NCBI GenBank assembly: GCA_030651035.1
Contig: JAUSCK010000277.1
Span: 7,711 to 71,710, forward strand
Source: Elusimicrobiota bacterium
Lineage (GTDB): Bacteria; Elusimicrobiota; Elusimicrobia; Elusimicrobiales; UBA9959
Length of the DNA: 64,000 nucleotides
Reading direction: 5' to 3'
A program made the translations under genes and the position numbers. The first letter of the stretch is position 1, and every line of letters begins with the position of its first letter. This document shows positions 1,791-55,861 of the stretch, one piece after another. Under the pieces are notes generated by a model. The model was not told the DNA's origin. It saw only the letters and a program-made list of their open reading frames with translations, and made no database searches.

Positions 1791-3356
1791 CTATTCTTTT
1801 ACCGCTATAACATAATGTGTGCTCTGCGGGACCGTGGCCCGAAACAGCGGGGTCTCGCCTTCGGCCGAGATCTTTTCCGGGACTGCCTTAGCCCAGCCTC
1901 CGTCGGTAAGGTAAAGCAGCGTCGCCTCACCAGCGGCTGCGCCGCAGGCCCCGGTCAGGCGGAATTCCATAACCAGGTCCCCCTGTATATTGCCGGGGAC
2001 GCCCACCAGCTGCAGCGAAGAGCAGGCCTTAAGTCCGCCCGGAAGTGCCGCGGCCAGCTTCTCCGGAAGTTCCCCCTCCGCCGCGTTGAAAACCTCGGGC
2101 GCAGGGCCCCTGGACAGCACCCTCATGACTATGGCGCGGGCAGGGGATTCCTCACATACCCCCTCGAGCATGAACTGCACCCCGGCGGGAGAGATCTTCA
2201 GCGGCTTGGCTTGAACGGCGTAGGCGTGCAGTTTGACGGCCTGGAGTTTTTCCGAGGCCAGCACGTTCTCCCTGGGCGAGCGCAGGGCGGGCGCCTTTTT
2301 CTCTCCGAACCTGAAAGAGATAGAAAAGCGGTGCGAATTACCTATATCGCCGAAAGGGGAGAACGCGTAATCAAAAGAGAGTCTTTCCAGCTCCAGCCCC
2401 ATGCCGGCCGAGAAGCCGGACCAGGCTCCGAGCTCGTTGCCGTGCAGGCGGTAGCGGTAGCCGGTGCGCAGCGCCAGGCGCCCGGTCAGCTGCTGCTCCA
2501 GGCCGAGAGCGAGGAAGGGATAATTATCAATCGGTTTGGAAACGTCCAGGCTCAGCAGGGCGCCGGCTTCCGGTATGTGGTGGCTGAGGCCGGCACGCAG
2601 CGTCAGGGGCAGGGCGTAGCTTTTCGACGACAACTTGAGCCCCGGCCCGATGTTCAGCGCCGAAGCCCCGGCGGTAAAAAGGCGGCCGCCCAGCCAGTTG
2701 AACGAGCGGGTCACACCGAGATCAAGCGCGGCTGTGGAGCCGGACTCGTCGTCGATGGTCTGGCTTATGAACTTTACGGCGCCGCCGATATTGGTATCGG
2801 CATCGTAGGCGAAGCCATAGCCGAGTGAGAAAGCCAGGTCGTAGGCCTTGAAGGTCCCTTCCACCGGGGAGATCGGATAGAGCGGGTCGCTTTCGTAAAG
2901 CCCGCTGCGCCGCTCCAGGTCTTTCGGCGTGTGGAAATAATTCAGAGCCAGCCCCCACGTTCCCTTCTTAAGATAGGACGGCCTGAGAAACCGAAGCTTC
3001 TCTCCCTCCGTGGTATAGACGAACAGCTCCTGGCCGAGGTCCTGAAAATACTCGTTATGAGTGAAACTCGCGCGGCGCTCTTTCAGCCCGGCCAGCCCGG
3101 CCGGGTTCCAAAAAATGGCATACGGGTCGTCGGCGACCGCGGTAAAGGCCCCGCCCATGGAGACGGCCCGTGCTCCCGCGCCTATCTTGAGGAAAGCCGC
3201 GGAAGTGGAACCGGCGTCGGGGTGGATCTTCGCGGCATAAGCAGGGAGGGAGTTCAGCGCCAGAAACTGCGCGACAAGGGCAGACAGAACGACCGCGCCT
3301 TGTTTTCGCCAAACAAAGCCGTTCCGTAAAAAGTTAAATCTGCCGTTCAATTTCAT
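1791..3356 (-). CDS. Outer-membrane beta-barrel, PorV/PorQ- or FadL-like, with an extra C-terminal domain
   Basis: Signal-like N-terminus (LNSLPAYAA) followed by LKIGAGARAVSMGGAFTAVADDPYAIFWNPAGLA, a motif typical of PorV/FadL-type barrels. Alternating strand pattern runs to about aa 370, then about 150 further aa. Start set to ATG 3356 (GAGGGA 4 nt upstream); the track start at 3377 is GTG. Confidence 0.7.
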   Translation of the reverse strand: MKLNGRFNFLRNGFVWRKQGAVVLSALVAQFLALNSLPAYAAKIHPDAGSTSAAFLKIGAGARAVSMGGAFTAVADDPYAIFWNPAGLAGLKERRASFTHNEYFQDLGQELFVYTTEGEKLRFLRPSYLKKGTWGLALNYFHTPKDLERRSGLYESDPLYPISPVEGTFKAYDLAFSLGYGFAYDADTNIGGAVKFISQTIDDESGSTAALDLGVTRSFNWLGGRLFTAGASALNIGPGLKLSSKSYALPLTLRAGLSHHIPEAGALLSLDVSKPIDNYPFLALGLEQQLTGRLALRTGYRYRLHGNELGAWSGFSAGMGLELERLSFDYAFSPFGDIGNSHRFSISFRFGEKKAPALRSPRENVLASEKLQAVKLHAYAVQAKPLKISPAGVQFMLEGVCEESPARAIVMRVLSRGPAPEVFNAAEGELPEKLAAALPGGLKACSSLQLVGVPGNIQGDLVMEFRLTGACGAAAGEATLLYLTDGGWAKAVPEKISAEGETPLFRATVPQSTHYVIAVKE

Positions 3357-3367
3357 ACGTCCCTCTT

Positions 3368-3430
3368 GACTCCCCACTCCCGATTCTCGATTCCCGACTC
3401 CCGACTATCGACTTTTGATTTTCGATTTCC
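3368..3430. repeat. Nine tandem heptamers GAYTYYC (GRRRRTC on the minus strand)
   Basis: The run reads gactccc cactccc gattctc gattccc gactccc gactatc gactttt gattttc gatttcc. It fills the spacer between the 1070-aa gene stop (3430) and the PorV-like gene start (3356). Confidence 0.9.
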
Positions 3431-35414: not shown

Positions 35415-35442
35415 AGTATAGCAGGCGTATTTCCATAGTCAA
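35415..35442 (-). promoter_or_regulatory. Sigma70-like promoter for Rrf2 and the giant gene
   Basis: The minus strand reads TTGACT-N16-TATACT. The -35 box overlaps the rSAM stop codon (35439-35441). Confidence 0.5.
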
Positions 35443-36536
35443 GGGGTAATCTCGCGACTCTTGGATACATAAATCTGGCTCATTATTTTCGCCATTTCAC
35501 AGGCCGGTTTATTGGGAGCGAACAGGTTTCCTTCCTCAATAAGGCTCAAGCCGGGACAGCGGCTGCAGAAGTCTATATCCGCGCAGGAGGCGCAGCCTTT
35601 AAGGTCCCGCATTCCTGCGCTGCGCCATTTTTTAAGCCAGGCCGAGTTTTTCCAGATGTCGGAGAAGCTTTGCCTGGTCAGATCCCCCAGTTTTACCGGA
35701 ACCTGCAGGCAGGAATAAAGCCCGCCCTCCGGGCCGACAGCGCAGACATTGCGGCCGGCGCCGCATAGAAAATCCAGGGTCGGGGAGTCGGGAGTCGAGA
35801 GTCGGGGGTCGAGCGCAGCGAGACTGTGCTTGTCGGGAATCGGGGAGCGGGGATTAAGAGGCGCGGAGAGAAGTTTTACTGCTTTTGACAGCTGCGGGCC
35901 GGAGAGGCGCAGGGGGAGGGCGGAGGCGTTGCCGTCGTTGGTTGAGGTTATAGTCGGGTCGAAAGAGATATCAAAGCCTTCTGTTTCAGCGAGTTTCCTG
36001 AGCCAGCCGGCCTGGCCCAGGTTTTTTTTCATCAGCGGGGTTTTAAATTTCACTTTTATGCCGGCCGCCTTAAGCAGGCGGGCCGCCGCAAGGGTGTGTT
36101 TAGAAGAATTTTTCACGCCGGTAACGGAATCATGCAGGGCGGGTTTACCATAAAAACTGAGCTCAAAGGCGGAAACCCCGGCTTTCTTAAATTCAGCGGC
36201 AAGTCCGGGTGTCAGCCCCAGGCCAGTGGAAAAAACACGGACGTCGAAGTTGAGCTTTTTTGCGTGGCGGCAGAGCTCGGCCAGGTCGGGACGCAGCAGG
36301 GGTTCCCCCCCGGTATAAACCAGGTAAAGCGCGCCGGCTCCCGCCAGCTGCGCGAGGATATTCTTCCATTGGGCGGTTGTCAGTTCAAGGCCGGCGGGGG
36401 CGCGGCCGCGGGTCTCCGGCAGGTAACAATGCAGGCAGGCGAGGGGGCAGCGGCGCGTGAGCTCAATAGTGACCGCCGCCGGGATATTCCGCTCAAGCGT
36501 AAGCGTGTTCAGTTTAGCCGCAATTGCGAATTTCAT
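35439..36536 (-). CDS. Radical SAM / SPASM-domain peptide maturase
   Basis: 365 aa with the CPLACLHC (CxxxCxxC) cluster, GGEPLL, and a C-terminal Cys-rich SPASM region (FLCGAGRNVCAV...CLQ...GCASCADIDFCSRCPG). Confidence 0.85.
   Translation of the reverse strand: MKFAIAAKLNTLTLERNIPAAVTIELTRRCPLACLHCYLPETRGRAPAGLELTTAQWKNILAQLAGAGALYLVYTGGEPLLRPDLAELCRHAKKLNFDVRVFSTGLGLTPGLAAEFKKAGVSAFELSFYGKPALHDSVTGVKNSSKHTLAAARLLKAAGIKVKFKTPLMKKNLGQAGWLRKLAETEGFDISFDPTITSTNDGNASALPLRLSGPQLSKAVKLLSAPLNPRSPIPDKHSLAALDPRLSTPDSPTLDFLCGAGRNVCAVGPEGGLYSCLQVPVKLGDLTRQSFSDIWKNSAWLKKWRSAGMRDLKGCASCADIDFCSRCPGLSLIEEGNLFAPNKPACEMAKIMSQIYVSKSREITP
35777..35870 (+). repeat. GRRRGTC word array embedded in frame in the rSAM gene
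   Basis: The plus strand reads GGGTC GGGGAGTC GGGAGTC GAGAGTC GGGGGTC ... GTC GGGAATC GGGGAGC GGGGATT AAGAGG. This is homologous to the minus-strand reading of 3368-3430 (GTC GGGAATC GAGAATC GGGAGTG GGGAGTC AAGAGG). It encodes LNPRSPIPDKHSLAALDPRLSTPDSPTLD between the rSAM core and SPASM. Confidence 0.75.
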
Positions 36537-36563
36537 ATCCGGATTTCCCGAATGGGGTGCGAA

Positions 36564-36905
36564 TTACACGAACAACAGAGCAAGCGAGCGGCGGATCTTT
36601 GAGTAGATATAGCCGCAAAGGCCGCCGGCAAGGGGGTTTCGGCTCAGGACTTTGCCGCGGATATTTTCCCATGGCACCAGGTGGGGTTCCAGGCGGCCGG
36701 CGTCATCCGCCAGCCAGGCGCCTTCCGGCCCGGTTTTTACCACCCGGTGAAGCAATATGCGGCCCTCAAGATCGTATACAGCGCAATCGCCTGGGGAAAG
36801 GATAAGGGATGAGGGATGAGGGATGAGGGGATGCACGAGGGCAATCTCGCCGGGTTTAAATACCGGGAGCATGCTTGACCCCTCAAGACGGAAAGCGGCG
36901 GGCAT
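36564..36905 (-). CDS. S26B-type (SipW/Sec11-like) signal-peptidase-fold protein, candidate leader peptidase
   Basis: 113 aa. EGSSMLPVFKPGE (GxSMxP Ser box) and ILLHRVVK (His in place of Lys, as in archaeal/ER-type S26B). The ATG lies 2 nt after the precursor stop. Confidence 0.6.
   Translation of the reverse strand: MPAAFRLEGSSMLPVFKPGEIALVHPLIPHPSSLILSPGDCAVYDLEGRILLHRVVKTGPEGAWLADDAGRLEPHLVPWENIRGKVLSRNPLAGGLCGYIYSKIRRSLALLFV
36797..36831 (+). repeat. Five tandem heptamers RARGGAT inside the peptidase gene
   Basis: aaaggat aagggat gagggat gagggat gagggga, encoding the loop PLIPHPSSLILSP in frame. Confidence 0.85.
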
Positions 36906-36907
36906 AT

Positions 36908-37045
36908 TCAGGAAAATTTTTTAAGCGTCTTACAGGCCAGCTGGCTGATGGGCCCGGTCTGGCACTTGCCGCAGGCCAGCGCGGCGGTCTCAAAGACCTT
37001 TTCGGTCTTTATTTTAGGTTTTTCGTATGTCTTCTTTTTTTTCAT
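36908..37045 (-). CDS. 45-aa candidate RiPP precursor peptide (not in the ORF track)
   Basis: My translation is MKKKKTYEKPKIKTEKVFETAALACGKCQTGPISQLACKTLKKFS. GGGGGAG sits 7 nt upstream of the ATG. The ORF begins 14 nt after the PqqD stop, and its stop is 2 nt before the peptidase ATG. It has a PqqA-like KP leader, an A-L-A site and three Cys. Confidence 0.7.
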   Translation of the reverse strand: MKKKKTYEKPKIKTEKVFETAALACGKCQTGPISQLACKTLKKFS

Positions 37046-37059
37046 AGATCACTCCCCCG

Positions 37060-37323
37060 TCAGGTCTTTTTAGCAAGCAGGCCGGCTTTCAAAAGCTCGG
37101 CAATAAAGCTGTTCATATCCGCGCGGGCGGTTTCTTCGTCCACTTCGAATTCGGCCGTAATTGCCGAGACCAGGGCGCTTTCCTTTTTACCGGAGGCAAG
37201 GCCTTCCCAGATAAGGGCGGCGGGGCTGTTCAGCTCGTGCAACTCGGCCCGGGAGGCGTCCACTATGAACATTTCCCCGGCAATGCGCCGGTAAGCCAGG
37301 TCCTTTTTAATATTGGTCTTCAT
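37060..37323 (-). CDS. PqqD-family peptide chaperone (RRE)
   Basis: 87 aa. IAGEMFIVDASRAELHELNSPAALIWEGL...ITAEFEVDEETARADMNSFIAELLKAGLL fits the PqqD pattern. Confidence 0.8.
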   Translation of the reverse strand: MKTNIKKDLAYRRIAGEMFIVDASRAELHELNSPAALIWEGLASGKKESALVSAITAEFEVDEETARADMNSFIAELLKAGLLAKKT

Positions 37324-37355: not shown

Positions 37356-37763
37356 TCATTGAAACAGCGTTTTTACCCAATCAAGGTAACGGCCAACATC
37401 TTTTGTGATGTCCGACGCTTCCCGTTCGGTAAATTCCCTGGAATCATATTCCACTATGCTCTTTTGCCCAAGGATACGGGTAAGCCGGGCGGACTGTACG
37501 CTGACCTTCTCGTGCTTTATGTGAATACACAGCAGCTCTACCGCCTCATAGTGGCTTTCTCCGGCTGAGCGCACCTTGGCTTTAAATCCCAGCGCCGCGT
37601 CGGTAGCGGATATAGCGCAGTGGACTCCCGCCAGGCCCGCCGAATTCCACCGTCTTTGTCTGCAGGACTCCAGCATGGTCTGGTAGAATTCCTCAGCCTT
37701 CTTCAGATAGGATTTTGCCTCGGCTTCGCTCACATGCCTGGTGCGGTGTTTTTTAGGGCTCAT
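37356..37763 (-). CDS. HEPN-domain protein (toxin of an MNT/HEPN pair)
   Basis: Helical protein of about 135 aa with an R-x5-H motif (RSAGESH). It overlaps the upstream MNT gene by 11 nt. The track start at 37781 is TTG; ATG 37763 is preferred. Confidence 0.7.
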   Translation of the reverse strand: MSPKKHRTRHVSEAEAKSYLKKAEEFYQTMLESCRQRRWNSAGLAGVHCAISATDAALGFKAKVRSAGESHYEAVELLCIHIKHEKVSVQSARLTRILGQKSIVEYDSREFTEREASDITKDVGRYLDWVKTLFQ

Positions 37764-38376
37764 GGGCCAGCAGCTCCTCAAAATATTTACCGGAAATTAC
37801 GCGGCCTTCCTTGATCACATTTTGGATCAATTTATCTTTTTTATCGAACCTGGCGACAAAGTCCCGGCGACGAATAACATGCGGGGAAAGCATCATTCCG
37901 AATTTGGCCAGAAATTCCCCGCTTTTATCCTGTATGCCAGCGGTGATCTTCCGGACATCGAGGGAATCCTCAAGCACGAGCATAATATCCAGGTCGCTGC
38001 CCTGTCTGCCTTCCCCGCGCGCCACACTGCCGAAGACGATCAGGGACACGACGCCTTTATTCGGCAGCGCCTTGCGCAGCTCCTCTATCATCGCGCCAAA
38101 CAGCCCCCCCTCGCTTTCGAAAAGGGGAGACAGCATATTTTTAACCACATAACGCGTTCTGTTGAGCGAGAATAAATATGAAGCCCCCGCGGTCTTCCTG
38201 TGGACGATGCCCGCGGCATAGAGTTCCTGCAGGGCCTGCTGCGCGGCCCTGGGGCTCAAGTCCGCCTTCCTGGCAATTTCCCTGCCCGTGAATTCCGTCC
38301 CGCGGTAAAGGATGCGGAGAATAGTCACCTTTGACTTCTGCCCCAGAAAATCCTCCAGCAGATGCTTTGTGTCCAT
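37753..38376 (-). CDS. Winged-helix plus minimal nucleotidyltransferase (MNT) protein
   Basis: N-terminal wHTH (KVTILRILYRGTEFTGREIARKADLSPRAAQQALQEL) followed by the NTase motif LIVFGSVARGEGRQGSDLDIMLVL (GS...DxD). Confidence 0.8.
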   Translation of the reverse strand: MDTKHLLEDFLGQKSKVTILRILYRGTEFTGREIARKADLSPRAAQQALQELYAAGIVHRKTAGASYLFSLNRTRYVVKNMLSPLFESEGGLFGAMIEELRKALPNKGVVSLIVFGSVARGEGRQGSDLDIMLVLEDSLDVRKITAGIQDKSGEFLAKFGMMLSPHVIRRRDFVARFDKKDKLIQNVIKEGRVISGKYFEELLAHEP

Positions 38377-38485: not shown

Positions 38486-39355
38486 CTAACTAATAAGGCT
38501 CAGGAAATCAGCGTTATCCTTTGAGAATTCCAACCGGGCGAACTTCGCTTTTGAGATCAACTGGACGGCATTCCCCATTATCAAAGTCGAGGTCCCCGGG
38601 TTTTTATCAAAATTCACCAGGCAGCGGAGCAGCAGTTTAAGCGCTTCACCCTTTGTACAGGCGCGCACTTTGTTGAGCTTCGCCTTGTTAAGCAGGTAGA
38701 TCCCGCCCAGGGGCCAGGAGCCCTGCCTGCCATCGGCGCGCATCTCCCCCCAGAAAGGGGAGCCGTAAACCCTGAAGCGGCCCTTTTCAAAGCGGACGAG
38801 GTTTATTTCGTCGCTTATTACCTCGGCCCCGCACTTTTTCCGAAGACGGCCAAAGTGCGGGGCAAGCCCCTGGGCCGCTAATTTCGCCAGGGTGGACTTG
38901 CCGGCGCCGGATTTGCCTAAAAAAAGGTATGCTTTGCCGTTCTTAACCAGCCCGGCCGAATGCTGCATGAAGCCGCCGGAACGGATGAGCAAAAAACTTA
39001 TAAAAGAACGTAAAAAAGCGTCAAGGCACTGTTCATTGGGGGCGGCTTTCAGTGTTCCGGCCCCGGCACGCATATCCAGAACCGCCTCAAAATCCCCGCG
39101 CTTAATTTCCAGAGAGCGTCCGTCAAACAAAACCTCCGGCTTGAACGGGTTTTGCCTGCCGGGGGCCTCAGAAACATCCAGCCTGAAGCCCGCGCCGACC
39201 GCCGACCCGAATTTACTATACCTGTGCTTTAAAATTGAAATGATACTTATCGCGTCCGATTTCAGGCTTAACCTGAAACCGGCTATTTCAAGCCCCACCC
39301 GGCCTGAGAAAGCGGCCAGGGTCTTTCCACTGTTTTTCAAAGGGAATTTTATCAT
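38486..39355 (-). CDS. HprK-related kinase-like P-loop protein
   Basis: 289 aa. HSAGLVKNGKAYLFLGKSGAGKSTLAKLA resembles the HPr kinase C-terminal P-loop. No HPr kinase N-terminal domain is present. Confidence 0.6.
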   Translation of the reverse strand: MIKFPLKNSGKTLAAFSGRVGLEIAGFRLSLKSDAISIISILKHRYSKFGSAVGAGFRLDVSEAPGRQNPFKPEVLFDGRSLEIKRGDFEAVLDMRAGAGTLKAAPNEQCLDAFLRSFISFLLIRSGGFMQHSAGLVKNGKAYLFLGKSGAGKSTLAKLAAQGLAPHFGRLRKKCGAEVISDEINLVRFEKGRFRVYGSPFWGEMRADGRQGSWPLGGIYLLNKAKLNKVRACTKGEALKLLLRCLVNFDKNPGTSTLIMGNAVQLISKAKFARLEFSKDNADFLSLIS

Positions 39356-39451: not shown

Positions 39452-42001
39452 TTAACCTCCCAACACGCGCGCCCTTGCCCGCCAAAGCCCGGCTTTTTTC
39501 TGTTCCCCGCGCGCGGCATACAGCCGGGCCATCGTCGTCGCGGCTTTAAAGCTCAAAGGGTCGCGGCTTACGGCGACCTCGCAGCAGCGCAGCGCGCGGC
39601 CGAGATCTCCCGTCTGCGCGGCATAGTACGCCAGCTGCAGCCAATCGTCCGACCCCCAATTGCGTCCGAACCTCGCTTCCAGCCAGTCCAGGAACCGCAG
39701 TGTCAGGGCCGGCCTGCCCGCCAGTACCGGCCAGACCGAACGCTGGAATAAGTCGGTATGCGTATAGAAAATGACAAGGGCCTGCTCGAGGAAGCGGGGG
39801 TCATCCGGGCCGCGCAGTTTTATATTGTAGGACCCGGGGTTTATGGCCACCTGGTCGGGCGGCGGCTCTTTCGTGTACCGCGCGGCAACCGCCTGGAATT
39901 CCAGCAGCGGGAGATCGTCGGTGTTCGGCGTCACTTTCGCCAGGTCCGGGCGCGGGAAGATATCGCCGGTCAGCAGGATATTATTCAGATGCATGAACGG
40001 GTCCGCGCCGCTGGCGCCGGTCTCTACCGCTTTTTGTACCCCCGGCGGCAGCCAGGCTCCGGCGGCGGAACGCAGCTTCACTTCGGAATCGGAACAGACG
40101 AGCACATAATAGTTCGCGCGGGCGAGCGCCAGCCCGCAATGCCGGAAATTCCGGGACAGGGTGGCTAGTATCGTGTCCACCCCCGCGTTCGACATGTCGA
40201 GGTAGGTGAACCAGAGCAGGTAGACGCCGTCCGGCGCGAGGGCGCGCTTCACCAGGGTGTAGAACTCCATCGTGTGCAGTTTGGCCGCGGCCGCGTAGTC
40301 CGGCGGGGGCAGCGTGCTGACTATCGCGTCGTACGGCGCGCGGGGCCGGGCCAGGAACCTGCGCCCGTCGTCATGGTAGATAGAGGCCCCGGGGTTGCGG
40401 GCCAGGTCGAGGTTCGCGCCGGGAATTATAGGGAGCAGGGGGCGGCAGGCGCCGTTGATCTCCACGATATCGGTATGCCCGAACAGCGAAGCCACCGTTC
40501 CGGCCGTTATGCCGGTACCCAGGCCGAGGACGAGGGCCCTGTCCCTCCTGGGGGCCGCCAGGGCGGGCAGCACGCCGTAGACGGTCTCGGAGATGTTGGC
40601 GTTATCCTTCGTCCCGAAATGTATCCCTCCCACGCCGTTGTGTATTATGGACGAATTGATACGGCCCCGGACATAGGTGACATTGTCGGACGCGGACTTG
40701 AAGTGGACCAGCGTGGCGCCGGGTTCATACGGCGTGTTGGCCGCATACACCAACCCCTGCGGCAGGCCGGTAACCCGCCAGCACAGCAGGGCGGCAGCGC
40801 ACAGGGTCGGCAGGCGCCGCCGGGCGAACCCGGGCCCTTCGTAGACGAGGGCCGCGGAGACCAGCAGGGCGGCGCCTAAGACGGGAGCCGTGAAAAGCCC
40901 GGACAGCGGGTGGACGGCGAAAGTGTAGAGCAGGAGCCCGACGGCGTTGCCCAGGCCGGACACCAGCAGCAGCCGCCCGCTGTCGCGCGCCAGGCGCGGC
41001 GAGGCGCCGGCCAGCGCCGGGATGGCTCCCCAGAACCAGATTACCGGCAGGCCGCCCAGCAGGAATGCGAAAAAGAGCTTAAGCGCTACAGCGGCCGCTT
41101 CCGTAGACACCCCGGCCAGGAGGCCGTAATAGCCCTTCACCAGCAAAGGGAAAGCGGCGTAGATCAAGCCGATGCCGAAAGCCGAGAGCAGCGCGCAGTC
41201 GGCGAACCCCGTGTTCCGGCGGCGGACCAGCCAGGTCCCGGCCGTAATGGAGAACAGGGTGGCCGCGGTGCAGACGGCGAAGTTCTCGCGGCTGGGCAGG
41301 AATATACAATAGCCGGCCTTGAGAAAAAAAGCCGAGAACAGCGCCCCGCCCAGGCTGGCCAGGAACAGGGCCGTTCCCTGCCGGAGAAAAGGGGAGGGAG
41401 CATCCGGCAGTTCAGTTTTTTTTACCTCGCGGAGGTCGGGCCGCAGCCAGAGCGCCAGGCCGCAGGCCAGGCTCAGCGCGCCCAGCAGCCGCAGCGACAC
41501 GATCACGCCGAAATAACGGACGGCGGCAAACTCCATGAGGAGCAGCCCGGCGGCGGCGCCTATATTATAGAGGGAGTACGCCGAATGCAGCGGGAAATCC
41601 CCCTCCCCCCGCCGCTCCAGGTAGGCGGCGAACAGCGGCACGGCGAACCCCGCCGCTACCGCCGGAACGGCTAGCAGCAGCGCGGAAGCCAGCACGGCCT
41701 GCGCGCCGGGATGCGGAAGCAGCTCCGCAAGGGGCGAGGCCTCGTAAGCCCGCGCCAGCGCCGGGAAAAAGAAAGCGTACGCGCCGGCGGCAAGCTCGAA
41801 AATATGAAGGCGGGAAGCGAAGCGGTGCGCTACCCACGCGCCCAGGCCCAGGCCCAGCAGGAAAACCGCCACGAGCGCGGCGTGGACATAATACATGTCG
41901 CCCAGGAAGGTGGTCAGATGGCGCAGGTAGAGGACCTCGCAGGCGACGCCGCCGGCGCCGGAGAGCACGGATAAAAGCAGGAGCAGGTTGACGGGGTTCA
42001 T
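39452..42001 (-). CDS. Fused polytopic membrane / spermidine-synthase-fold protein with C-terminal TPR
   Basis: 849 aa. N-terminal SGAGGVACEVLYLRHL plus about 12 hydrophobic segments, a class-I MTase/spermidine-synthase-like core (ALVLGLGTGITAGT...DIVEIN...YDAIVS) and a TPR-like tail. Confidence 0.7.
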   Translation of the reverse strand: MNPVNLLLLLSVLSGAGGVACEVLYLRHLTTFLGDMYYVHAALVAVFLLGLGLGAWVAHRFASRLHIFELAAGAYAFFFPALARAYEASPLAELLPHPGAQAVLASALLLAVPAVAAGFAVPLFAAYLERRGEGDFPLHSAYSLYNIGAAAGLLLMEFAAVRYFGVIVSLRLLGALSLACGLALWLRPDLREVKKTELPDAPSPFLRQGTALFLASLGGALFSAFFLKAGYCIFLPSRENFAVCTAATLFSITAGTWLVRRRNTGFADCALLSAFGIGLIYAAFPLLVKGYYGLLAGVSTEAAAVALKLFFAFLLGGLPVIWFWGAIPALAGASPRLARDSGRLLLVSGLGNAVGLLLYTFAVHPLSGLFTAPVLGAALLVSAALVYEGPGFARRRLPTLCAAALLCWRVTGLPQGLVYAANTPYEPGATLVHFKSASDNVTYVRGRINSSIIHNGVGGIHFGTKDNANISETVYGVLPALAAPRRDRALVLGLGTGITAGTVASLFGHTDIVEINGACRPLLPIIPGANLDLARNPGASIYHDDGRRFLARPRAPYDAIVSTLPPPDYAAAAKLHTMEFYTLVKRALAPDGVYLLWFTYLDMSNAGVDTILATLSRNFRHCGLALARANYYVLVCSDSEVKLRSAAGAWLPPGVQKAVETGASGADPFMHLNNILLTGDIFPRPDLAKVTPNTDDLPLLEFQAVAARYTKEPPPDQVAINPGSYNIKLRGPDDPRFLEQALVIFYTHTDLFQRSVWPVLAGRPALTLRFLDWLEARFGRNWGSDDWLQLAYYAAQTGDLGRALRCCEVAVSRDPLSFKAATTMARLYAARGEQKKAGLWRARARVLGG

Positions 42002-44301
42002 GAGCGGTCGGCCTGGAGAGAGTCGAAAATGGACAGGGAAGGCGACCCGTGCGCCCAGCGGTATTCCAGCACGGGGCGGTCGTCGGAGTGGAGGTAAGGC
42101 GGCGCGAAGCCGTTATCCTCATTAAGCTTTTTCTCGAACTCGCGCGAATACCGGAAAGCCTCGCTGAAAAAAGCGCGGGGGTCGCTTATCCCGAGCCGCC
42201 TCATTTCCGCGAGCATACGCGGGCCCGCCCGCTCCAGGCTGACCGGCGCGTCCTCCAGCGGCCCGGCGAAAGCCACTACGTTGAAATCCTTGCCGTAGGC
42301 GGGGAAATACAGCACGGTGGAGAACACCGAGCGCAGCCCCCGGGAAAGCAGCAGTATATCGTTGCCGTGTACGAGCTGGGTGTACGCGCCGCCGGGGTTT
42401 AGCCGGGACTTTGCCAGCCGCCAGAAGTCCACGGTATAAAGCGAAGAGGAACCCGGCAGGTACGGGTCGAGCACGTTCACGCTGATCACGTCGTAGGTGC
42501 GCTCCTCCGCAGCCAGCAGGCGGCGGCCGTCCCCGGCCAGGAGCTCCGCGCGATCGTCATTGTAGTAGCCGGAATTGAATTCCTGGAAAAGGCGCTGGAT
42601 GCGCAGAAAGAACGGCAGGATCTCGATGGTACGCATCTCGCGGACGCCCTCCGCCTGCAGGAAGGCCCCGGCCGTAAGGCCGAACCCGGTGCCGATGTTC
42701 AGCACGCTCTCGCAGCGCCTGGCGAGCAGGCAGGAGAAGTACGCGGGGGTTTTCTGCGCATAGCTGGTAGCGGGGTTCCCGAGCGGGTTGACCAGGCTGA
42801 GCCGGTTATTGCGGACCTTCAGCCCGTCGGGACCGCGCACCGCGACCTGTATGCCGTATTCATCCTCGTTGCTGTCAAGCAGGGTTTCGCCCTGCTTGAG
42901 GAAGATGAAGTTCTTAGGCGAGAGCTGCCAGCCTAAAGCCAGGGCCGCCAGGCTTGCGGCGGCCGCGGAAGCCAGCCGCCTATTTTCAAGCAGCGCGGTG
43001 AAACAGGCGAGCGCCGCCAGCACCGCCACGCCGGAGGCGGCGACAAAGCCGTAAGCGGTGCCGATTCTTGCCGGCAGCCACAGCCCGCCGTACACCGCGC
43101 CGAGCGCGGCGCCGAGCGAACTGGCCGCGAACAGGAGGCCGGAAAGCCTGCCGGGCCGCCCGCTCTCAGTCTCGGCGGCCTGGAGCAGGACCGGGAAGAC
43201 GGCTCCAAGCGCCACTACGCCCGGCCCCATGGCCAGGAGGGTGAGGGAGATCCTGCCCGCCCCGCTGTTCCCCGGCAGCCAGGACGGGAACAGGGCGCCG
43301 CCGACGATCGCATGCGCCAGCCCGGCGCCCGCCGGGTGCAGGAAAGCGGAAATGGAAAGCAGGAAGGCGGCGATGAGGAGGGCGCCGCGCCTGCCCCGCA
43401 CTTTTTCCGCAGCGGCCAAAGTGCGGGGCCTGCCGCCCCAGCGGCGGCCTGCGAAACGGGCTAAAGAGCAGCCCAGGACAAGGCAGGACAGGTAAATGGC
43501 CAGCAGCAGCGAAATGGCCAAAGTCCGGTCGCCCAGGTAAAATTTGGCTACCCTTCCCCAGAGCAGCTCATAGCACAGCGACAGCGCACCGGACAGAAAG
43601 GCCAGGGCCAGGAAGGGCGCGGCCGGAAACGGCAGACTTTTCTCAGGCGGCAGCCCGCCGTTTTGGGGGATGTCCCCGGCTCCGGACACAGCAAACCCCA
43701 GCAAGGCCGCCGCTGCGTACATGAACAGCGCCAGGTCGGCGGTCCCGGAAACACCGAACAGCCAGAGCAGCGCAAAACCGCAGGCGAGCGCCCCGACGGC
43801 CCCGCCGGCCGTATTTACCGCGTACAAAGCGGCCGCCTCGTCCCCCGCTTTCTTCCCCTCTTTCAAAGCGCCGACGATAACGGGGAAACCTATCCCCATC
43901 GGGACGGCCGCCAGCAGGATAAGCGCAAGGGCCTGCGCGGAGGTCACCGTGTCGCCATGCCGGAGAAGCGCCCAGACCGCCAGGCGCCCGAATAGCCCGG
44001 CGGAAAGGTTAACGGCGGAAAGGGTCAGGAGGGGTCTGCGGAGGAAAGGCAAAAGCAGGCTTCCCAGCCAGGAACCGAGGGCTAGCGCCAGTATGAACGC
44101 GGCAAAAACGGCGGTCATGGCCGCGGCGGTCGAACCGGCTATATTGGAATAGAGCCGGGTTAAAAGGACTTCGAAGACCAGCCCCCCGGCGCCGGAAATA
44201 AAAAAAAGCGTTTTGAGCCAGAAAAGCCTGCTCCTGCGGGAAAAACAGCGATAAAGGGGGTCCTCACCGAGGATAGCGCGCAGCCCGGCCAGGCTGATCA
44301 T
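41998..44301 (-). CDS. Fused polytopic membrane / spermidine-synthase-fold protein (paralogue)
   Basis: 767 aa. ISGAGGLVFEVLLTRLYS plus multiple TM segments, then VLNIGTGFGLTAGA...EILPFF...YDVISVNVLDPYLPGSSSLYTVDFW. It has a 4-nt ATGA overlap with the downstream paralogue. Confidence 0.7.
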   Translation of the reverse strand: MISLAGLRAILGEDPLYRCFSRRSRLFWLKTLFFISGAGGLVFEVLLTRLYSNIAGSTAAAMTAVFAAFILALALGSWLGSLLLPFLRRPLLTLSAVNLSAGLFGRLAVWALLRHGDTVTSAQALALILLAAVPMGIGFPVIVGALKEGKKAGDEAAALYAVNTAGGAVGALACGFALLWLFGVSGTADLALFMYAAAALLGFAVSGAGDIPQNGGLPPEKSLPFPAAPFLALAFLSGALSLCYELLWGRVAKFYLGDRTLAISLLLAIYLSCLVLGCSLARFAGRRWGGRPRTLAAAEKVRGRRGALLIAAFLLSISAFLHPAGAGLAHAIVGGALFPSWLPGNSGAGRISLTLLAMGPGVVALGAVFPVLLQAAETESGRPGRLSGLLFAASSLGAALGAVYGGLWLPARIGTAYGFVAASGVAVLAALACFTALLENRRLASAAAASLAALALGWQLSPKNFIFLKQGETLLDSNEDEYGIQVAVRGPDGLKVRNNRLSLVNPLGNPATSYAQKTPAYFSCLLARRCESVLNIGTGFGLTAGAFLQAEGVREMRTIEILPFFLRIQRLFQEFNSGYYNDDRAELLAGDGRRLLAAEERTYDVISVNVLDPYLPGSSSLYTVDFWRLAKSRLNPGGAYTQLVHGNDILLLSRGLRSVFSTVLYFPAYGKDFNVVAFAGPLEDAPVSLERAGPRMLAEMRRLGISDPRAFFSEAFRYSREFEKKLNEDNGFAPPYLHSDDRPVLEYRWAHGSPSLSIFDSLQADRS

Positions 44302-44314
44302 TGCCGGAGACCGC

Positions 44315-45664
44315 TCACAGGCCGGCCGGCCATACGGGCGGGACCTCGTACCAGGAGTCGGAGACTATGTCAACCCCCTGCAGCAGTATGCCGGTCGCCA
44401 CCTGGTCGTCGTAATAAATGCCCATGGTGGAAGTGCCCATGGTGGCGTCATGGGCGCTCATCAGCACGCCGTTGATATTGCAGTTGCCGCCGCCCACAAG
44501 GCCCTGGTCCCCCCCGGTATAAATAAAACCGTGTATGATCACATTGTCCAAGGTGTAGGTTTTATTGGCGGCCAGGTAGTTGGAGCTCAAAGCCGCCGCG
44601 TAAGTGGCCGGGGCCCCGCTAACCACAGGGTCGAAGGTCAGGTAATGCGCCCAGTTATTCCCATATTCCTTCCACGCCTCGGACGGCAGGCGGGCGGCAT
44701 ATTTGCCGGCGGCGCCGGCGGCGCCCCCGAAAGCCAGATCCCCGAGGACGATAACGGTGCCCCTGATGAATTGCGAAGAGCCGGCGCTGAAAGTGGCGTC
44801 CCCGGTTATGTAGTAGGTTTTATTGGTGATATCGTTGCAGCCGGAGAAAGTCGCATTCCCGACCCTGTAATAGGTGGAAGCTTTGGCGTTGCCGCAGCCA
44901 GTCGGGGCCGCGCCGCTGGCCGTGGCCGAGGCCAGGTAAGAGGAAAATTTGATATTCGGCAGCGGCGGGATGGCGTAATAAGACCACCAGTAAACATTGT
45001 CCGTATTGGAGGTGGTAGAGCCGCCGTCCTGCGGCGTTACATGCCCGGCGCTGTAATACCGGGGGAAGGTGCGGGCGGTGGCATCGATGGAGTTGCCGGA
45101 CACTACCGACCCCCACTCTATATGGTCGTTGCCCCCGGTATTGGATACCAGGTTGGAGGCCCGGGTGGCGAAGTCGGCGGCGTTGCCGTTAAGCAGCACC
45201 TGCTTTATGCGGCGGGCCTGGGCGCGGGTTTTATCCCTCCCCACCGATTCCACTATGCGCTTGTCGGGGTCTGTAGGGTGAGAAGTGATGTTTATAGCGT
45301 AGGTGCCGCCGTCCTCGGCGGTATAAACCTTGTCGAAATGGTAGCCGGCTAGCGTGCCGGTTGAAGTGATCGTCCACATATCGTCATTCTCAAGCAGCTT
45401 CCAGCGCGCCCTGTCCACCCCGGCCTCGGCCATGTGGAAAGCCGCCGTGGCTTTTTTCTCCTTTACCGACCACTTGCCCTCGTTCTGCACGAACATGTTC
45501 ATAACAGGGAACATCAGCAGAAGGAAAAGCATTATGACGATGACCATGGTCATGGCCATCTGGCCCGGCCGGGAGGCAAAGGATAAAGGATAAAGGATAA
45601 AGGATAAAGGGCGGCGGACCAAAGCCGAAAGCACTTTCCCGCCCGAATTTTCTATTCTTTTCAT
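44315..45664 (-). CDS. PilX-like minor pilin / pilus assembly protein
   Basis: SRPGQMAMTMVIVIMLFLLLMF ... AFHMAEAGVDRARWKLL resembles the PilX N-terminal domain, followed by a large Gly/Thr/Ala-rich C-terminal region. ATG 45664 is preferred; the track start at 45700 is GTG. Confidence 0.55.
   Translation of the reverse strand: MKRIENSGGKVLSALVRRPLSFILYPLSFASRPGQMAMTMVIVIMLFLLLMFPVMNMFVQNEGKWSVKEKKATAAFHMAEAGVDRARWKLLENDDMWTITSTGTLAGYHFDKVYTAEDGGTYAINITSHPTDPDKRIVESVGRDKTRAQARRIKQVLLNGNAADFATRASNLVSNTGGNDHIEWGSVVSGNSIDATARTFPRYYSAGHVTPQDGGSTTSNTDNVYWWSYYAIPPLPNIKFSSYLASATASGAAPTGCGNAKASTYYRVGNATFSGCNDITNKTYYITGDATFSAGSSQFIRGTVIVLGDLAFGGAAGAAGKYAARLPSEAWKEYGNNWAHYLTFDPVVSGAPATYAAALSSNYLAANKTYTLDNVIIHGFIYTGGDQGLVGGGNCNINGVLMSAHDATMGTSTMGIYYDDQVATGILLQGVDIVSDSWYEVPPVWPAGL
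45578..45612 (+). repeat. Four perfect AAAGGAT heptamers plus AAAGGGC inside the PilX-like 5' region
   Basis: aaaggat x4 at 45578-45605. It encodes PLSFILYPLSFA in the putative leader. Confidence 0.9.
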
Positions 45665-45700
45665 TATTTTTTCAACCTTCCCACTCCCCGCCGTTTCCAC

Positions 45701-45728
45701 CCTTCATCCCTCAGCCTTCATCCTTTCC
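45701..45728 (-). repeat. RARGGAT word array in the pseudopilin/PilX-like spacer
   Basis: The minus strand reads GGAAAGGATGAAGGCTGAGGGATGAAGG. It is complementary to the array at 45578-45612 and 23/27 identical to the element at 54438-54460. Confidence 0.85.
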
Positions 45729-45730
45729 TG

Positions 45731-46243
45731 CTAGTTCATTATCCTCACTTTTTCCACGGCCATCTGCAGGGCCTTGGTGCCGCCCTCATAGGTGGCTTTT
45801 TCAAAGGTTAAGGAGATAGAGAGTATGGTGCCGTCGTCGGTGCGGGGGTAGGTGAAGGCGATATAGCGCAGGTTGTTGGCTATCATCTTGCCGCTGACGC
45901 CGCCCCGGGCCTGGAAGAGCTGGGTGCCCTGCTGGTAGTAAGACATAGTCTCCAGGGCGCCGGCTGAATTGTACTTTATAAAGGTTATGCGGGAATGCGG
46001 CGGCTGTCCTGAAACCGAGTCTATGACAAGGCTGGCAGCCTGCGCCTGGCGCAGGTCCCTGTTGATATTGGCCAGCGCCCCGCGGGCGTTTTTCTGTATC
46101 TCCACGCGGGCCGTCATCAGCTGCACGAACTGGAAAACCTTGGTGAATGTTTTTGGCGCGGCTATCATTACCACTCCCATGATAGCCACCACCACCATCA
46201 TCTCTATCATGGTGAAACCGCGTTTTGAGCTTATGGTTCTCAT
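45731..46243 (-). CDS. Prepilin-type N-terminal cleavage/methylation domain protein (GspJ/PilW-like pseudopilin)
   Basis: MRTISSKRG/FTMIEMMVVVAIMGVV carries the canonical G/FTxIE motif with Glu+5. 170 aa. Confidence 0.85.
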   Translation of the reverse strand: MRTISSKRGFTMIEMMVVVAIMGVVMIAAPKTFTKVFQFVQLMTARVEIQKNARGALANINRDLRQAQAASLVIDSVSGQPPHSRITFIKYNSAGALETMSYYQQGTQLFQARGGVSGKMIANNLRYIAFTYPRTDDGTILSISLTFEKATYEGGTKALQMAVEKVRIMN

Positions 46244-52119: not shown

Positions 52120-52140
52120 AAGAAAAACTTCTTCCGATAT

Positions 52141-52270
52141 TCACCGCAGAGGCGCAGAGGTCGCAGAGTTCGGAGGGGAAAATATTAGTTTATGTTTCTT
52201 CTCACTGCGGTGTCGCTTCGCTCCACTCTGTGTACTCTGCTCTCTGCGACCTCTGCGCCTCTGCGGTGAA
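52141..52270 (+). repeat. TIR hairpin element, copy 2 (130 bp)
   Basis: TCACCGCAGAGGCGCAGAGGTCGCAGAG ... CTCTGCGACCTCTGCGCCTCTGCGGTGAA. The internal sequence is about 90% identical by eye to copy 4. Confidence 0.9.
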
Positions 52271-54437: not shown

Positions 54438-54460
54438 CCCTTTATCCTTCAGCCTTCATG
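54438..54460 (-). repeat. RARGGAT word array overlapping the anti-sigma stop
   Basis: The minus strand reads ATGAAGGCTGAAGGATAAAGGGCGGAA, a 23/27 match to the element upstream of the PilX-like gene. Confidence 0.8.
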
Positions 54461-54930
54461 TTTTTCTCTGCCAGACTCTCGTCTTCCAGCGCGCTGCACT
54501 TATATTCCCAGTCGCTGGAGACAGAAGCCATATCGAACTTCGCCTGGTACATTGAATATTCCACCGAGTCCAAACCGGAGTCGAGCCCGCTGTTCCAGGC
54601 CAGGTCGGCCGGGACGCCGCTGCCGGAGAAGATGAAGCCCGCGACCAGAAGAGAGGCCAGGGCGCCGGACAGGAGGGTCTCTCCCCAGTTAAAAGAGAAA
54701 ACGCTCCCGCGCGAAACAGCCGCGCGGGCGGCCAGCATCACGGCTTCAACGGTGGCCGCCGACGGCCCGGGAGCGCGCCCGGACAGCCGCCCCTCCGCGG
54801 CCTTGAGCGCGGCCAGCTCACCGCGGCACGCGGCGCAGCCGGCCAGGTGTTCTTTCACCCCGGCCCGCATATCTTCCGCGGCTTCGCCGTAGAAGTAAAG
54901 TATCAGTTTTTCGCCGTACCCGCAGTTCAT
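54442..54930 (-). CDS. Anti-sigma factor (zf-HC2 type)
   Basis: MNCGYGEKLILYFYGEAAEDMRAGVKEHLAGCAACRGEL (H-x3-C-x2-C) and one TM segment, downstream of the ECF sigma gene. ATG 54930 is preferred over the track start at 54984. Confidence 0.7.
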   Translation of the reverse strand: MNCGYGEKLILYFYGEAAEDMRAGVKEHLAGCAACRGELAALKAAEGRLSGRAPGPSAATVEAVMLAARAAVSRGSVFSFNWGETLLSGALASLLVAGFIFSGSGVPADLAWNSGLDSGLDSVEYSMYQAKFDMASVSSDWEYKCSALEDESLAEKNMKAEG

Positions 54931-55705: not shown

Positions 55706-55731
55706 TAATTATTACAACAAACAACCGATAT

Positions 55732-55861
55732 TCACCGCTGAGGCGCAGAGGTCGCGGAGTTCGGAGGAGAAAATATTAATTTATGTTTCTTCTCACTGCT
55801 GTGTCGCTTCGCTCCGCTCTGCGTACGCTGTTCTCTGCGACCTCTGCGCCTCAGCGGTGAA
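55732..55861 (+). repeat. TIR hairpin element, copy 4 (130 bp)
   Basis: TCACCGCTGAGGCGCAGAGGTCGCGGAG ... CTCTGCGACCTCTGCGCCTCAGCGGTGAA. It carries compensatory A/T changes in both arms (GCTGAGG / CCTCAGC). Confidence 0.9.

Follow-up and report, generated by a model that had tools for sequence, protein, structure and literature searches.

In the genome of an Elusimicrobiota bacterium, one segment of a radical SAM (rSAM)/SPASM maturase gene and one segment of a peptidase gene are probably copies of heptanucleotide repeat arrays that are dispersed in this lineage. The repeat character of these segments, their frame, their location, their restriction to a clade, their variation in length and the dispersal of a 24-nt core are established, and the units in both in-gene arrays match intergenic arrays of the same window, that is, of the 64-kb stretch of DNA that was analyzed. 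The DNA sampled comprised these 64 kb of the source genome and ~20 kb for each relative, and any figure for genome-wide abundance is an extrapolation from it. The features concerned are as follows (positions in the window).

3363..3430, minus strand: intergenic reference array of the GRRRRTC family; its G-rich strand is the sense strand of the neighboring genes
35439..36536, minus strand: gene for an rSAM/SPASM maturase of 365 aa, in which the first array lies (ORF and Pfam)
35772..35867, minus strand: interdomain linker, codons 224-255, SAPLNPRSPIPDKHSLAALDPRLSTPDSPTLD, with C-rich YYYCGAY heptamers on the sense strand; hypervariable in the homologue alignment
35777..35810, plus strand: heptamer block A on the G-rich template strand, GGGTC GGGGAGTC GGGAGTC GAGAGTC GGGGGTC (Tandem Repeats Finder)
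35808..35831, minus strand: 24-nt non-heptamer core AAGCACAGTCTCGCTGCGCTCGAC, coding for KHSLAALD; copy of a dispersed intergenic small repeat
35835..35861, plus strand: heptamer block B, GGGAATC GGGGAGC GGGGATT, followed by a terminal AAGAGG; aligns colinearly with the final part of the spacer array at 3363-3430
36564..36905, minus strand: gene for an S24/S26-fold peptidase of 113 aa, in which the second array lies (ORF; weak TIGR02228 and PF00717 matches)
36797..36832, plus strand: five-unit array AAAGGAT AAGGGAT GAGGGAT GAGGGAT GAGGGGAT as read on the template strand; the sense strand has TCATCCC-type units
45575..45726, minus strand: intergenic inverted pair of arrays of peptidase-type units (45575-45610 and 45699-45726) around a GC hairpin
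54440..54487, minus strand: short array of the peptidase-type unit family at a gene 3′ end and in the spacer that follows

Heptamer arrays between and within genes

Tandem Repeats Finder reported period-7 repeats in both genes (35783-35811, GGGAGTC, 4.1 copies, 86% matches; 36800-36829, GGATGAG, 4.3 copies, 95% matches) and also in the intergenic arrays (3368-3406 and 45578-45610). In the window and 10 related loci taken together, arrays of at least three copies numbered 21 at period 7, as against 0-8 at periods 5, 6 and 8-12. Within the 64-kb window, GRRRGTCGRRRGTC with at most one mismatch was matched 9 times against 1.42 expected, a count attained in none of 100 shuffles, and RARGGATRARGGAT was matched 10 times against 0.14 expected. 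The units fall into two families, GRRRRTC (YYYCGAY on the other strand) and RRGGMTR (TCATCCC-type on the other strand), and each in-gene array includes one 8-mer. Four of the six array sites in the window are intergenic or straddle a gene 3′ end, between co-oriented genes, and the intergenic arrays adjoin a stop codon or a start codon; the 3363-3430 array, for example, follows a stop codon and precedes the RBS-like AAGAGGGA and the ATG of the next gene. Elsewhere, arrays lie between co-oriented genes at L086 3826-4028, where they form a convergent inverted pair (3826-3901 with 3993-4028), and in the atpB-atpE spacer of L094.

The first host gene encodes a protein (P0001) that is 100% identical to a protein of an Elusimicrobiota MAG. 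It has both the CxxxCxxC cluster motif and the SPASM Cys motifs of radical SAM/SPASM maturases (C30, which is at least 90% conserved, C34 and C37; invariant C258, C276, C315, C318, C324 and C346), and its Pfam scores exceed the thresholds (PF04055, 74.3 vs. 29.5; PF13186, 33.4 vs. 21.5). The initial annotation had placed a stretch of about 30 aa, rich in Pro, Ser and Leu, between the rSAM core and the SPASM region, and the repeat-coded codons 224-255 do lie between the two domains, because Pfam assigns Radical_SAM to residues 24-170 and SPASM to residues 258-318. In the AlphaFold2 model, residues 227-264 have pLDDT values below 50 and no secondary structure, and the linker filled by the array is thus predicted to be disordered. 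The same annotation regarded this stretch as a reappearance of the GRRRGTC array of 3368-3430. The units are indeed the same and the stretch can be aligned colinearly with the 3350-3440 spacer up to and including the ...GAATCGGG...AAGAGG end that both have (identity in 58 and gaps in 20 of the 111 alignment columns), but the array is not continuous: five G-rich units (35777-35810) are followed by the 24-nt non-heptamer core, three degenerate units (35835-35855) and AAGAGG (35856-35861).

The product of the second host gene is most safely called an S24/S26-fold peptidase, with the S26B (SipW/Sec11-type) subtype as a candidate. The fold (model pLDDT 89; best Foldseek matches LexA, SipA and SpsB), an xSSM/xTSM Ser box conserved in those aligned homologues for which the ORF call extends over the N-terminus, and H53 in LLHR, invariant among the aligned homologues, fit the S26B label given earlier, but the HMM scores lie under the curated cut-offs (TIGR02228, 22.4 vs. 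51.85; PF00717, 20.1 vs. 23.3). The array codes for most of HPLIPHPSSLILSP (codons 25-38, 36792-36833). Although five in-frame units stand in a loop as described, they are not five RARGGAT heptamers at 36797-36831, since one of them is an 8-mer and the total is 36 nt. In the AlphaFold2 model, the array occupies the loop between strands E21-26 and E41-46 and would add 7 aa to this β-hairpin loop, which measures 54 nt against a 33-nt baseline in L001, L003, L081, L082, L084 and L085 (+21 nt, 7 aa); the peptidases of the closest rSAM relatives have the baseline loop. Structure prediction, which had been suggested as a check, thus puts both segments in disordered or loop regions. Both ORFs read through their arrays in frame and without stops, as had been claimed, and the catalytic and Cys motifs downstream are conserved.

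Clade restriction and length variation of the linkers

Close loci were retrieved by exact-protein match; a contig scan with the rSAM alignment was dominated by generic radical-SAM patterns and gave 3 close loci. In a quick neighbor-joining tree, the array-bearing rSAM proteins form one clade within the Elusimicrobiales, in which heptamer-built linkers are 20-43 aa long and differ in length mostly by steps of 21 nt (linker DNA of 66, 87, 108 and 129 nt). The distance from FD(P/L) to CGAGRN is 52-75 residues in this clade, as against 48-59 in nearly all distant homologues, and the classes 53/60/67/74 and 52/59/66 account for about 18 of the 23 repeat-clade proteins. A strict 21-nt rule is only partly true: linkers of 105 and 132 nt also occur, and two linkers within one 90% cluster differ by 27 nt. 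All changes keep the frame, and the multiple-of-three length, put forward as a check in the initial annotation, was found throughout (66, 87, 105, 108, 129 and 132 nt). In that 90%-identity cluster, whose members are 91-97% identical, the 9-aa linker difference is the sole internal indel, and the remaining length differences are confined to the called N-terminus. In L086, units of the other family occupy the same rSAM linker and the same peptidase loop (93 nt), and they also occur in ScmC, a third gene. An ATG within an array was called as a start codon at this locus.

Homologues of at most 64% identity carry unrelated Ala/Pro linkers of normal length. The segments are absent from them, and the conserved peptide that would have marked these stretches as ancestral linkers was not found in distant relatives. 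The proposal of lineage-specific insertions needs rewording for the rSAM gene, since there the array is common to the whole clade and replaced the ancestral linker rather than adding to it. The shortest repeat linkers equal the ancestral ones in length, and in several lineages inside the clade the array has given way to short linkers that are unrelated to it.

The 24-nt core and the origin of the in-gene arrays

The core overlaps the last unit of block A by 3 nt and occurs once in the 64-kb window. It is present in three rSAM genes (those of the window, L081 and L083) and at seven distinct, unrelated non-rSAM sites on metagenome contigs (L088-L095), with 23-24/24 identity to the gene copy. All seven sites lie between ORFs, and heptamers of the rSAM-array type flank the core in all three rSAM genes and at six of the seven intergenic sites. 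Since the core recurs at unrelated intergenic sites, the rSAM gene holds a copy of a dispersed repeat. On four of these contigs (L088, L089, L093 and L094), the proteins flanking the core cluster at ≥90% identity with Elusimicrobiota MAG proteins, and at least four of the core-bearing contigs thus belong to this phylum. The core is found in three non-sister rSAM branches in one reading frame, and orthologues with and without it exist. From this distribution, its presence in rSAM genes is best read as ancestral and followed by several losses, in which case the rSAM site would offer no clean pair of filled and empty alleles; it is conceivable, too, that the rSAM gene was the source of the intergenic copies. 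A phage origin was considered for the core and for a palindromic element of the window (see below), and neither had a match in viral contigs. The core and the spacer of a palindromic element with 9-mer arms have TCGCTTCGCTC in common, as judged by eye; this piece is short and of low complexity.

The central proposal of the initial annotation, that repeat elements have entered coding sequence at structurally tolerant places, is supported by the distant homologues that have no such segments, by the 33-nt and 54-nt loops of the peptidases, by the loop positions in the AlphaFold2 models and by the dispersed core. The most likely account is that, in the ancestor of the Elusimicrobiales clade, an array with an embedded 24-nt core took over the disordered linker between the rSAM barrel and the SPASM domain, which would then have been lengthened and shortened (20-43 aa), the surviving net changes being divisible by 3 and mostly amounting to three units (21 nt, 7 aa), and that a five-unit array extended the β-hairpin loop of the peptidase by 7 aa. 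As the C-rich strand is the sense strand, the arrays are translated through all three codon phases into a low-complexity peptide rich in Pro, Ser, Asp, Arg and Leu, and they may persist because they are stop-free and located where the fold tolerates them. We read them as tolerated DNA, mutationally driven or selfish, rather than as a device with its own function; they are presumably neutral, and they may have entered the genes by ectopic gene conversion between arrays or by some copying process.

Alternatively, the arrays may have been born in place by polymerase slippage on native C-rich Pro/Ala codons, their likeness to intergenic arrays reflecting a slippage bias of the whole genome. The ancestral linkers are C-rich Pro/Ala tracts (as in L003), the array 3′ end blends into the unit-like codons GAYTTY of a conserved Asp-Phe, the shortest repeat linkers have the ancestral length, and slippage is the accepted source of such repeats (PMC4692102). 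Nevertheless, we consider this origin unlikely. The core is non-repetitive and common to the gene and seven unrelated intergenic sites, and thus is not attributable to slippage; in addition, one linker position holds two different unit families in different genomes, and the colinearity of the rSAM stretch with the 3363-3430 spacer extends to the AAGAGG end.

Pro-rich linkers are common between domains, and the linker is in frame throughout the clade at 20-43 aa, so that selection might act on the Pro/Ser/Asp/Arg-rich peptide as an extended and flexible tether, the length of which would tune the way in which the SPASM domain and the peptidase loop meet the substrate peptide. This seems very unlikely, because conservation follows the 7-nt lattice and not the codon. 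Lag-7 identity of the linker DNA is 0.47 in the window (about 0.25-0.36 at other short lags) and 0.47-0.71 over eight loci (about 0.2-0.45 at other lags); CGA occurs in all three codon phases in the window, and over the eight loci no lag-3 signal is present and the invariant CGA is found equally in the three phases. What is constrained is thus the DNA repeat and not the peptide. The swapping of the array for unrelated short linkers in several lineages and the presence of the same units in non-coding DNA also argue against a selected tether.

The initial annotation offered, as another possibility, RNA-level structures inside the operon, to which G-quadruplex (G4) or i-motif DNA on the template strand, modulating transcription, can be added. 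The RNA of the intergenic inverted pair at 45575-45726 folds strongly (-71.8 kcal/mol, z = -3.44), GGGAATC-repeat oligonucleotides form G4 in vitro (PMC4692102), and the peptidase array contains a canonical G3N4 × 4 motif on the template strand (36806-36830). By contrast, the mRNA across the in-gene arrays is not more stably folded than shuffled sequences (z = +1.40 and -0.67) and the operon has no complementary array, so the RNA alternative is unsupported; no Rfam family matched in the window. As a property that would unify the arrays, G4 fails as well: of the seven canonical motifs in the window, a single one overlaps a heptamer array, the motifs are not enriched (7 vs. 11.3 expected), and the rSAM array and the AAAGGAT arrays have none, many units being without a G3 run. 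We therefore give little credence to a structural role.

Equally improbable is a phase-variation switch, in which the gain or loss of a single 7-nt unit would shift the frame and thereby switch the SPASM domain, or else the peptidase, between off and on states in part of the population. It would accord with a unit length that is not a multiple of 3, with the arrays in several genes of one L086 operon and with the different array lengths of very close relatives. Phase-variable contingency loci, such as those of Haemophilus and Neisseria, likewise have, inside coding sequence, tandem units that are not a multiple of 3, but they consist of perfect tracts, usually near the 5′ end, with on/off frameshift alleles. 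The arrays described here lie mid-gene and are imperfect and interrupted (81-95% matches, plus the 24-nt core), which lowers slippage, and no frameshifted, truncated or split allele at the linker was found among 120 listed homologues and 10 clusters. Query coverage is at least 88% for each of the 120 listed homologues, and identical proteins occur on up to 15-16 contigs. The sole split gene pair (P0260/P0261), considered as a sign of a frameshift at the array, breaks at residue 125, outside the linker. The published repeat class has itself been judged unlikely to serve in phase variation (PMC4692102).

Relation to known repeats and significance

The closest known class is that of the GGGNATC-type heptamer repeats of Xanthomonas and Nostoc, together with the small dispersed repeats of Nostoc. 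The in-gene arrays add a new case to a type of bacterial repeat that is already known, and they involve no new mechanism. Rehm et al. (2015; PMC4692102) described G-rich heptamer repeats, GGGAATC in Xanthomonas and GGGGA(C/T)T in Nostoc, of which an intragenic minority avoids having the G-rich strand on the coding strand; the intragenic copies were not traced into proteins. Similarly, the window has 7-nt units that include literal GGGAATC and GGGAGTC, and also GAGAATC (3363-3430 and 35777-35855), many of them degenerate, and its arrays are dispersed and mostly intergenic between co-oriented genes in the 64 kb sampled. Arrays that adjoin a stop codon are G-rich on the sense strand, those just upstream of a start codon are G-rich on the antisense strand, and convergent inverted pairs are frequent (45575-45726, and 3826-4028 of L086); their copy number varies between close relatives, and the minority in ORFs keeps the G-rich strand off the coding strand. 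The differences are the phylum, the second unit family (RRGGMTR) and the many degenerate units without a G3 run, on account of which G4 formation is not a common property of the Elusimicrobiota arrays; at least four intact G3 tracts, as in the GGGNATC class, make up a canonical motif only at 36806-36830, as a sequence motif alone. Furthermore, the intragenic copies are here hypervariable linkers and loops at recurring sites in several genomes, unlike in the published work. A literature search found no report of heptanucleotide repeats in Elusimicrobia.

The heptamer repeats of cyanobacteria (STRR) are said to contain nested small dispersed repeats (SDR) of 21-27 nt, the in-gene copies of which reportedly keep the frame. 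The core resembles them in being a short unique sequence (24 nt) that occurs at many loci within tandem heptamer arrays, and also inside genes without breaking the frame. The likeness is one of organization, and the rSAM copy seems to be ancestral, with losses thereafter, and not a recent insertion. Rickettsia palindromic elements (RPE), reportedly palindromes of 100-150 bp inserted in frame in protein-coding genes, resemble the arrays as repeated DNA that ORFs tolerate in frame at surface or loop positions, where it encodes additional residues. The heptamer arrays, on the other hand, are neither palindromic nor self-complementary, and they change in copy number. In the window, an RPE-like palindromic unit is represented only by a separate element of 37-38 nt, which stands in two ORFs in two different frames (38826-38863 and 43393-43429, the latter as a putative insertion in a 767-aa ORF at 41998..44301) and in this respect behaves like an RPE.

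These observations extend a poorly understood class, G-rich heptamer arrays with nested small repeats, to an uncultured phylum. For annotation, they imply that Pro/Ser-rich low-complexity stretches in these proteins are repeat DNA and not functional motifs, and that the arrays mislead gene callers. Since two unit families and a palindromic element recur at the same protein sites, these sites are structurally permissive, which is useful for the engineering of the rSAM/SPASM enzyme. A further reading, which we advance only tentatively and think doubtful, is that the arrays and the 24-nt core form a family of very small, actively copied Elusimicrobiota elements (a second such case at the level of phyla, the first being the small dispersed repeats of Nostoc), which spread from array to array by copying or conversion and colonize disordered coding sites, repeatedly the same linkers of a RiPP-type maturation operon. 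If so, the translated copies would be a dated record of the entry and turnover of the elements. In the genes that they have come to occupy, the arrays have given rise to hypervariable disordered linkers and loops that evolve by a 7-nt DNA lattice rather than by the codon.

Heptamer arrays in two genes of one operon

The window belongs to a metagenome-assembled genome of Elusimicrobiota, and its radical SAM (rSAM) protein is 100% identical to one annotated "MAG: radical SAM protein [Elusimicrobiota bacterium]", which is encoded on a 77-kb contig. The genes concerned are as follows.

38486..39355, minus strand: ScmC-like P-loop protein
37356-38376, minus strand: HEPN and HTH-nucleotidyltransferase genes (MNT/HEPN-like pair), between ScmC and PqqD
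37060..37323, minus strand: PqqD-family protein
36908..37045, minus strand: 45-aa ORF, MKKKKTYEKPKIKTEKVFETAALACGKCQTGPISQLACKTLKKFS, between PqqD and the peptidase
36564..36905, minus strand: S24/S26-like peptidase
35439..36536, minus strand: radical SAM/SPASM protein
Minus strand: Rrf2 regulator
6691-34857, minus strand: 9388-aa protein, after the Rrf2 gene

The order ScmC, PqqD, 45-aa ORF, peptidase, rSAM, Rrf2 and giant protein is repeated in the related contigs fetched for comparison, and this gene set looks like a peptide-maturation cassette akin to the SynChlorMet type, the match being weak (TIGR04249 ScmC, E = 2.7e-6, under the curated cut-off). The 45-aa ORF, called at the equivalent position in five related loci (L081, L084, L085, L086, and L087), probably encodes the precursor peptide on which the rSAM/SPASM maturase acts. 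Giant orthologues lie downstream of the equivalent operon in every related locus; the 9388-aa ORF contains many ~109-aa repeats (327-nt period, 30491-32112) as well as fibronectin-type-III-like, LTD-like and beta-propeller-like regions. The MNT/HEPN-like pair is specific to the window and absent from the related loci, two of which (L082 and L083) have an AAA_14/DUF4143 gene nearby in its place.

Tandem Repeats Finder called period-7 arrays within the rSAM and peptidase genes (35783-35811 and 36800-36829, respectively) and in intergenic DNA (3368-3406 and 45578-45610). Two-unit patterns, one for each unit family, occur 9 and 10 times against expectations of 1.42 and 0.14 under dinucleotide-preserving shuffling, and no shuffle reached the observed counts. 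Arrays with three or more copies, counted over the window and ten related loci, number 21 at period 7 versus 0-8 at periods 5, 6, and 8-12. On the plus strand, the rSAM array begins with GGGTC GGGGAGTC GGGAGTC GAGAGTC GGGGGTC (35777-35810), the last unit of which overlaps by 3 nt a 24-nt non-heptamer core in the middle of the array (35808-35831), and it ends with GGGAATC GGGGAGC GGGGATT AAGAGG (35835-35861). The stretch aligns colinearly with the minus-strand spacer 3350-3440, common end included, which together with the period-7 call bears out the initial annotation of a GRRRGTC-type array carrying the terminal AAGAGG of that spacer inside the rSAM ORF. The peptidase array (36797-36832) reads AAAGGAT AAGGGAT GAGGGAT GAGGGAT GAGGGGAT and totals 36 nt, the final unit having 8 nt instead of 7. 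Each ORF continues uninterrupted across its array with the conserved downstream motifs intact, so that the frame is kept without stops, as had been claimed. Each of the five coding occurrences seen has the C-rich strand as its sense strand. With the GGGATGA family no other orientation is possible, because an array passes through all three phases and the G-rich reading meets a TGA in one of them.

The rSAM linker and its 24-nt core

The repeat-coded residues 224-255 constitute an interdomain linker, as judged from the Pfam domain limits (Radical_SAM, residues 24-170; SPASM, 258-318) and from an AlphaFold2 model built with 38 homologues (mean pLDDT 73), in which a helix reaches to residue 223, pLDDT is below 50 without secondary structure over residues 227-264, and the first SPASM strands follow. 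Of the 120 rSAM homologues compared, nearly all the distant ones place FD(P/L) and CGAGRN 48-59 residues apart and carry unrelated Ala/Pro-rich linkers. About 23 closest relatives have PDSRSPI-type or PDPRLST-type heptad linkers with distances of 52-75, the classes 53/60/67/74 and 52/59/66 covering ~18 of these 23 proteins. The proposal that the insert is lineage-specific holds for this group of close relatives, but not for this genome alone.

At the DNA level, runs of YYYCGAY form the linker in the window and in related loci L001/L085, L081, L082, L083, L084, and L087, with lengths of 66, 87, 108, 108, and 129 nt (21-nt steps), plus 105 and 132 nt. Lag-7 identity in this DNA is 0.47-0.71, no lag-3 signal was found, and the invariant CGA is evenly distributed among the three codon phases; therefore, it is the DNA repeat that is conserved, not the peptide. 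Neither heptamer periodicity nor the CGA pattern is present in the L002 and L003 linkers, which served as controls. With the linker masked, a quick neighbour-joining tree groups the array-bearing proteins in a single clade, within which several lineages now have short unrelated linkers in place of the array. A 9-aa linker difference is the sole internal indel in one 90%-identity cluster (members 91-97% identical), so that the linker turns over quickly compared with point substitution. Turnover is slower than the scale of sampling, identical proteins having been found on 15-16 contigs.

The core, AAGCACAGTCTCGCTKCGCTCGAC, encodes KHSLA(A/S)LD. Three rSAM genes (window, L081, and L083) have it in one reading frame, with differing numbers of flanking units. 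A scan of metagenome contigs yielded eight exact matches representing seven distinct loci, none in an rSAM gene and all between ORFs, for example in the atpB-atpE spacer and upstream of an amidase gene; heptamers like those of the rSAM array flank the core at six of the seven. Six of the seven have co-oriented neighbours whose sense strand is the G-rich one; downstream of the core in five of these come a few heptamer units, a variable spacer, and an RBS-like motif with ATG. Proteins flanking the core on four of these contigs (L088, L089, L093, and L094) belong to 90%-identity clusters shared with Elusimicrobiota MAG proteins. Slippage cannot independently make a 24-nt unique sequence, and the rSAM linker therefore includes a dispersed-repeat copy; this is the strongest support for the reading that repeats have invaded coding sequence at tolerant sites, here a disordered linker. 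The core may have moved by ectopic gene conversion between arrays, which would be the simplest route given the heptamers that border it at nearly all sites. As it occurs in three non-sister branches in a single frame, we read the core as a presumably ancestral feature of the rSAM clade that would then have been lost several times. Small dispersed repeats in Nostoc, reportedly 21-27 nt long, offer a parallel to this nested 24-nt core.

The peptidase loop and other repeat-bearing sites

In the peptidase model (pLDDT 89), residues 27-40 form a loop linking strands 21-26 and 41-46, in accordance with the annotated position of the RARGGAT array. The fold resembles LexA, SipA, and SpsB. H53 is conserved, as is the Ser box, which is GSSM in the window and xSSM/xTSM in those homologues that have the N-terminus within the called ORF. 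Family HMM scores are under the curated cut-offs, so the name used here is S24/S26-fold peptidase, its residues being S26B-like. In the public annotation (P0121, 102 aa) the protein begins at Met12, which leaves out the GSSM Ser box; conservation among homologues supports preferring the 113-aa ORF. The loop DNA is 33 nt long in six related loci, including those with the rSAM nearest to that of the window, and the 54-nt loop of the window is exactly three units longer. Three other loci have loops of 54-57 nt of non-repeat sequence, and a degenerate form of the window's insert is present in two metagenome proteins (PLIPQPSALILSP and PLIPRPPSLLLSP).

In L086, from the lineage of Elusimicrobia bacterium GWA2_56_46, the TCATCCC family occupies four sites.

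Site 1: rSAM linker
Site 2: peptidase loop, 93 nt of TCATCCC units
Site 3: ScmC, immediately past the Walker A motif, 36 nt extra
Site 4, 3826-4028: intergenic inverted pair upstream of a prepilin-like gene

An (AGGGATG)x11 array in L086 begins directly after a stop codon, and the start of the prepilin-like gene has been called at an ATG within the array; translation probably begins instead at the TTG that closely precedes the G|FSLAEL motif. Long RNA hairpins are predicted for the intergenic inverted pairs of both L086 (3826-4028) and the window (45575-45726).

A 37-38-nt palindromic element, GCCCCGCACTTTTTCCG..CGGCCAAAGTGCGGGGC, has two copies in the window (38826-38863 and 43393-43429), both inside ORFs and translated in different frames. 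The copy in the ScmC-like gene gives GLAPHFGRLRKKCG, a gain of 36 nt over five orthologues, and its site coincides with that of the heptamer array in L086; the other, in a 767-aa membrane, spermidine-synthase-like ORF (41998..44301), gives GRPRTLAAAEKVRGR. The other fetched loci and viral contigs contain no copies. The element is similar to the in-frame palindromic elements of Rickettsia, a classic case of repeat DNA within genes. A further dispersed repeat family of the genome is an intergenic palindromic element with tandem 9-mer arms, TTCACCGCAGAGGCGCAGAGGTCGCAGAG ... CTCTGCGACCTCTGCGCCTCTGCGGTGAA (819-899, 52140-52270, and 55731-55861), in which the spacer is conserved between the second and third copies.

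Alternative explanations and known repeat classes

The alternative that the in-gene arrays act as RNA-level structures in the operon was not upheld: mRNA folding is no better than in shuffles (rSAM, z = +1.40; peptidase, z = -0.67), the operon contains no complementary array, and no Rfam family matched. By contrast, the intergenic inverted pair at 45560-45740 folds at -71.8 kcal/mol (z = -3.44). G-quadruplex formation as a property common to the arrays was likewise rejected; only one of the seven canonical motifs in the window overlaps a heptamer array (peptidase, 36806-36830, template strand), and such motifs are not enriched in the window. Phase variation appears unlikely, the tracts being imperfect and mid-gene, with no frameshifted alleles seen among the homologues compared.

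The in-gene period-7 arrays are confirmed, and their interpretation as repeat invasion is supported. Dispersed heptamer repeats have been described in Xanthomonas (GGGAATC) and Nostoc (GGGGA(C/T)T), where 89-93% are intergenic and 7-11% overlap ORFs, convergent inverted pairs are frequent, copy number differs among close species, the G-rich strand is avoided on the coding strand, and function is unknown (Rehm et al., 2015; PMC4692102). The window arrays resemble these repeats in every positional feature listed and in their unit, which includes the literal GGGAATC. A full-text literature search returned no match for heptanucleotide repeats in Elusimicrobia; the arrays belong to an already known kind of repeat, for which Elusimicrobiota is a new phylum. 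Their significance lies in the way two unit families and a palindrome have repeatedly colonised identical permissive sites in the proteins, and in the inclusion of a small dispersed core within the arrays.
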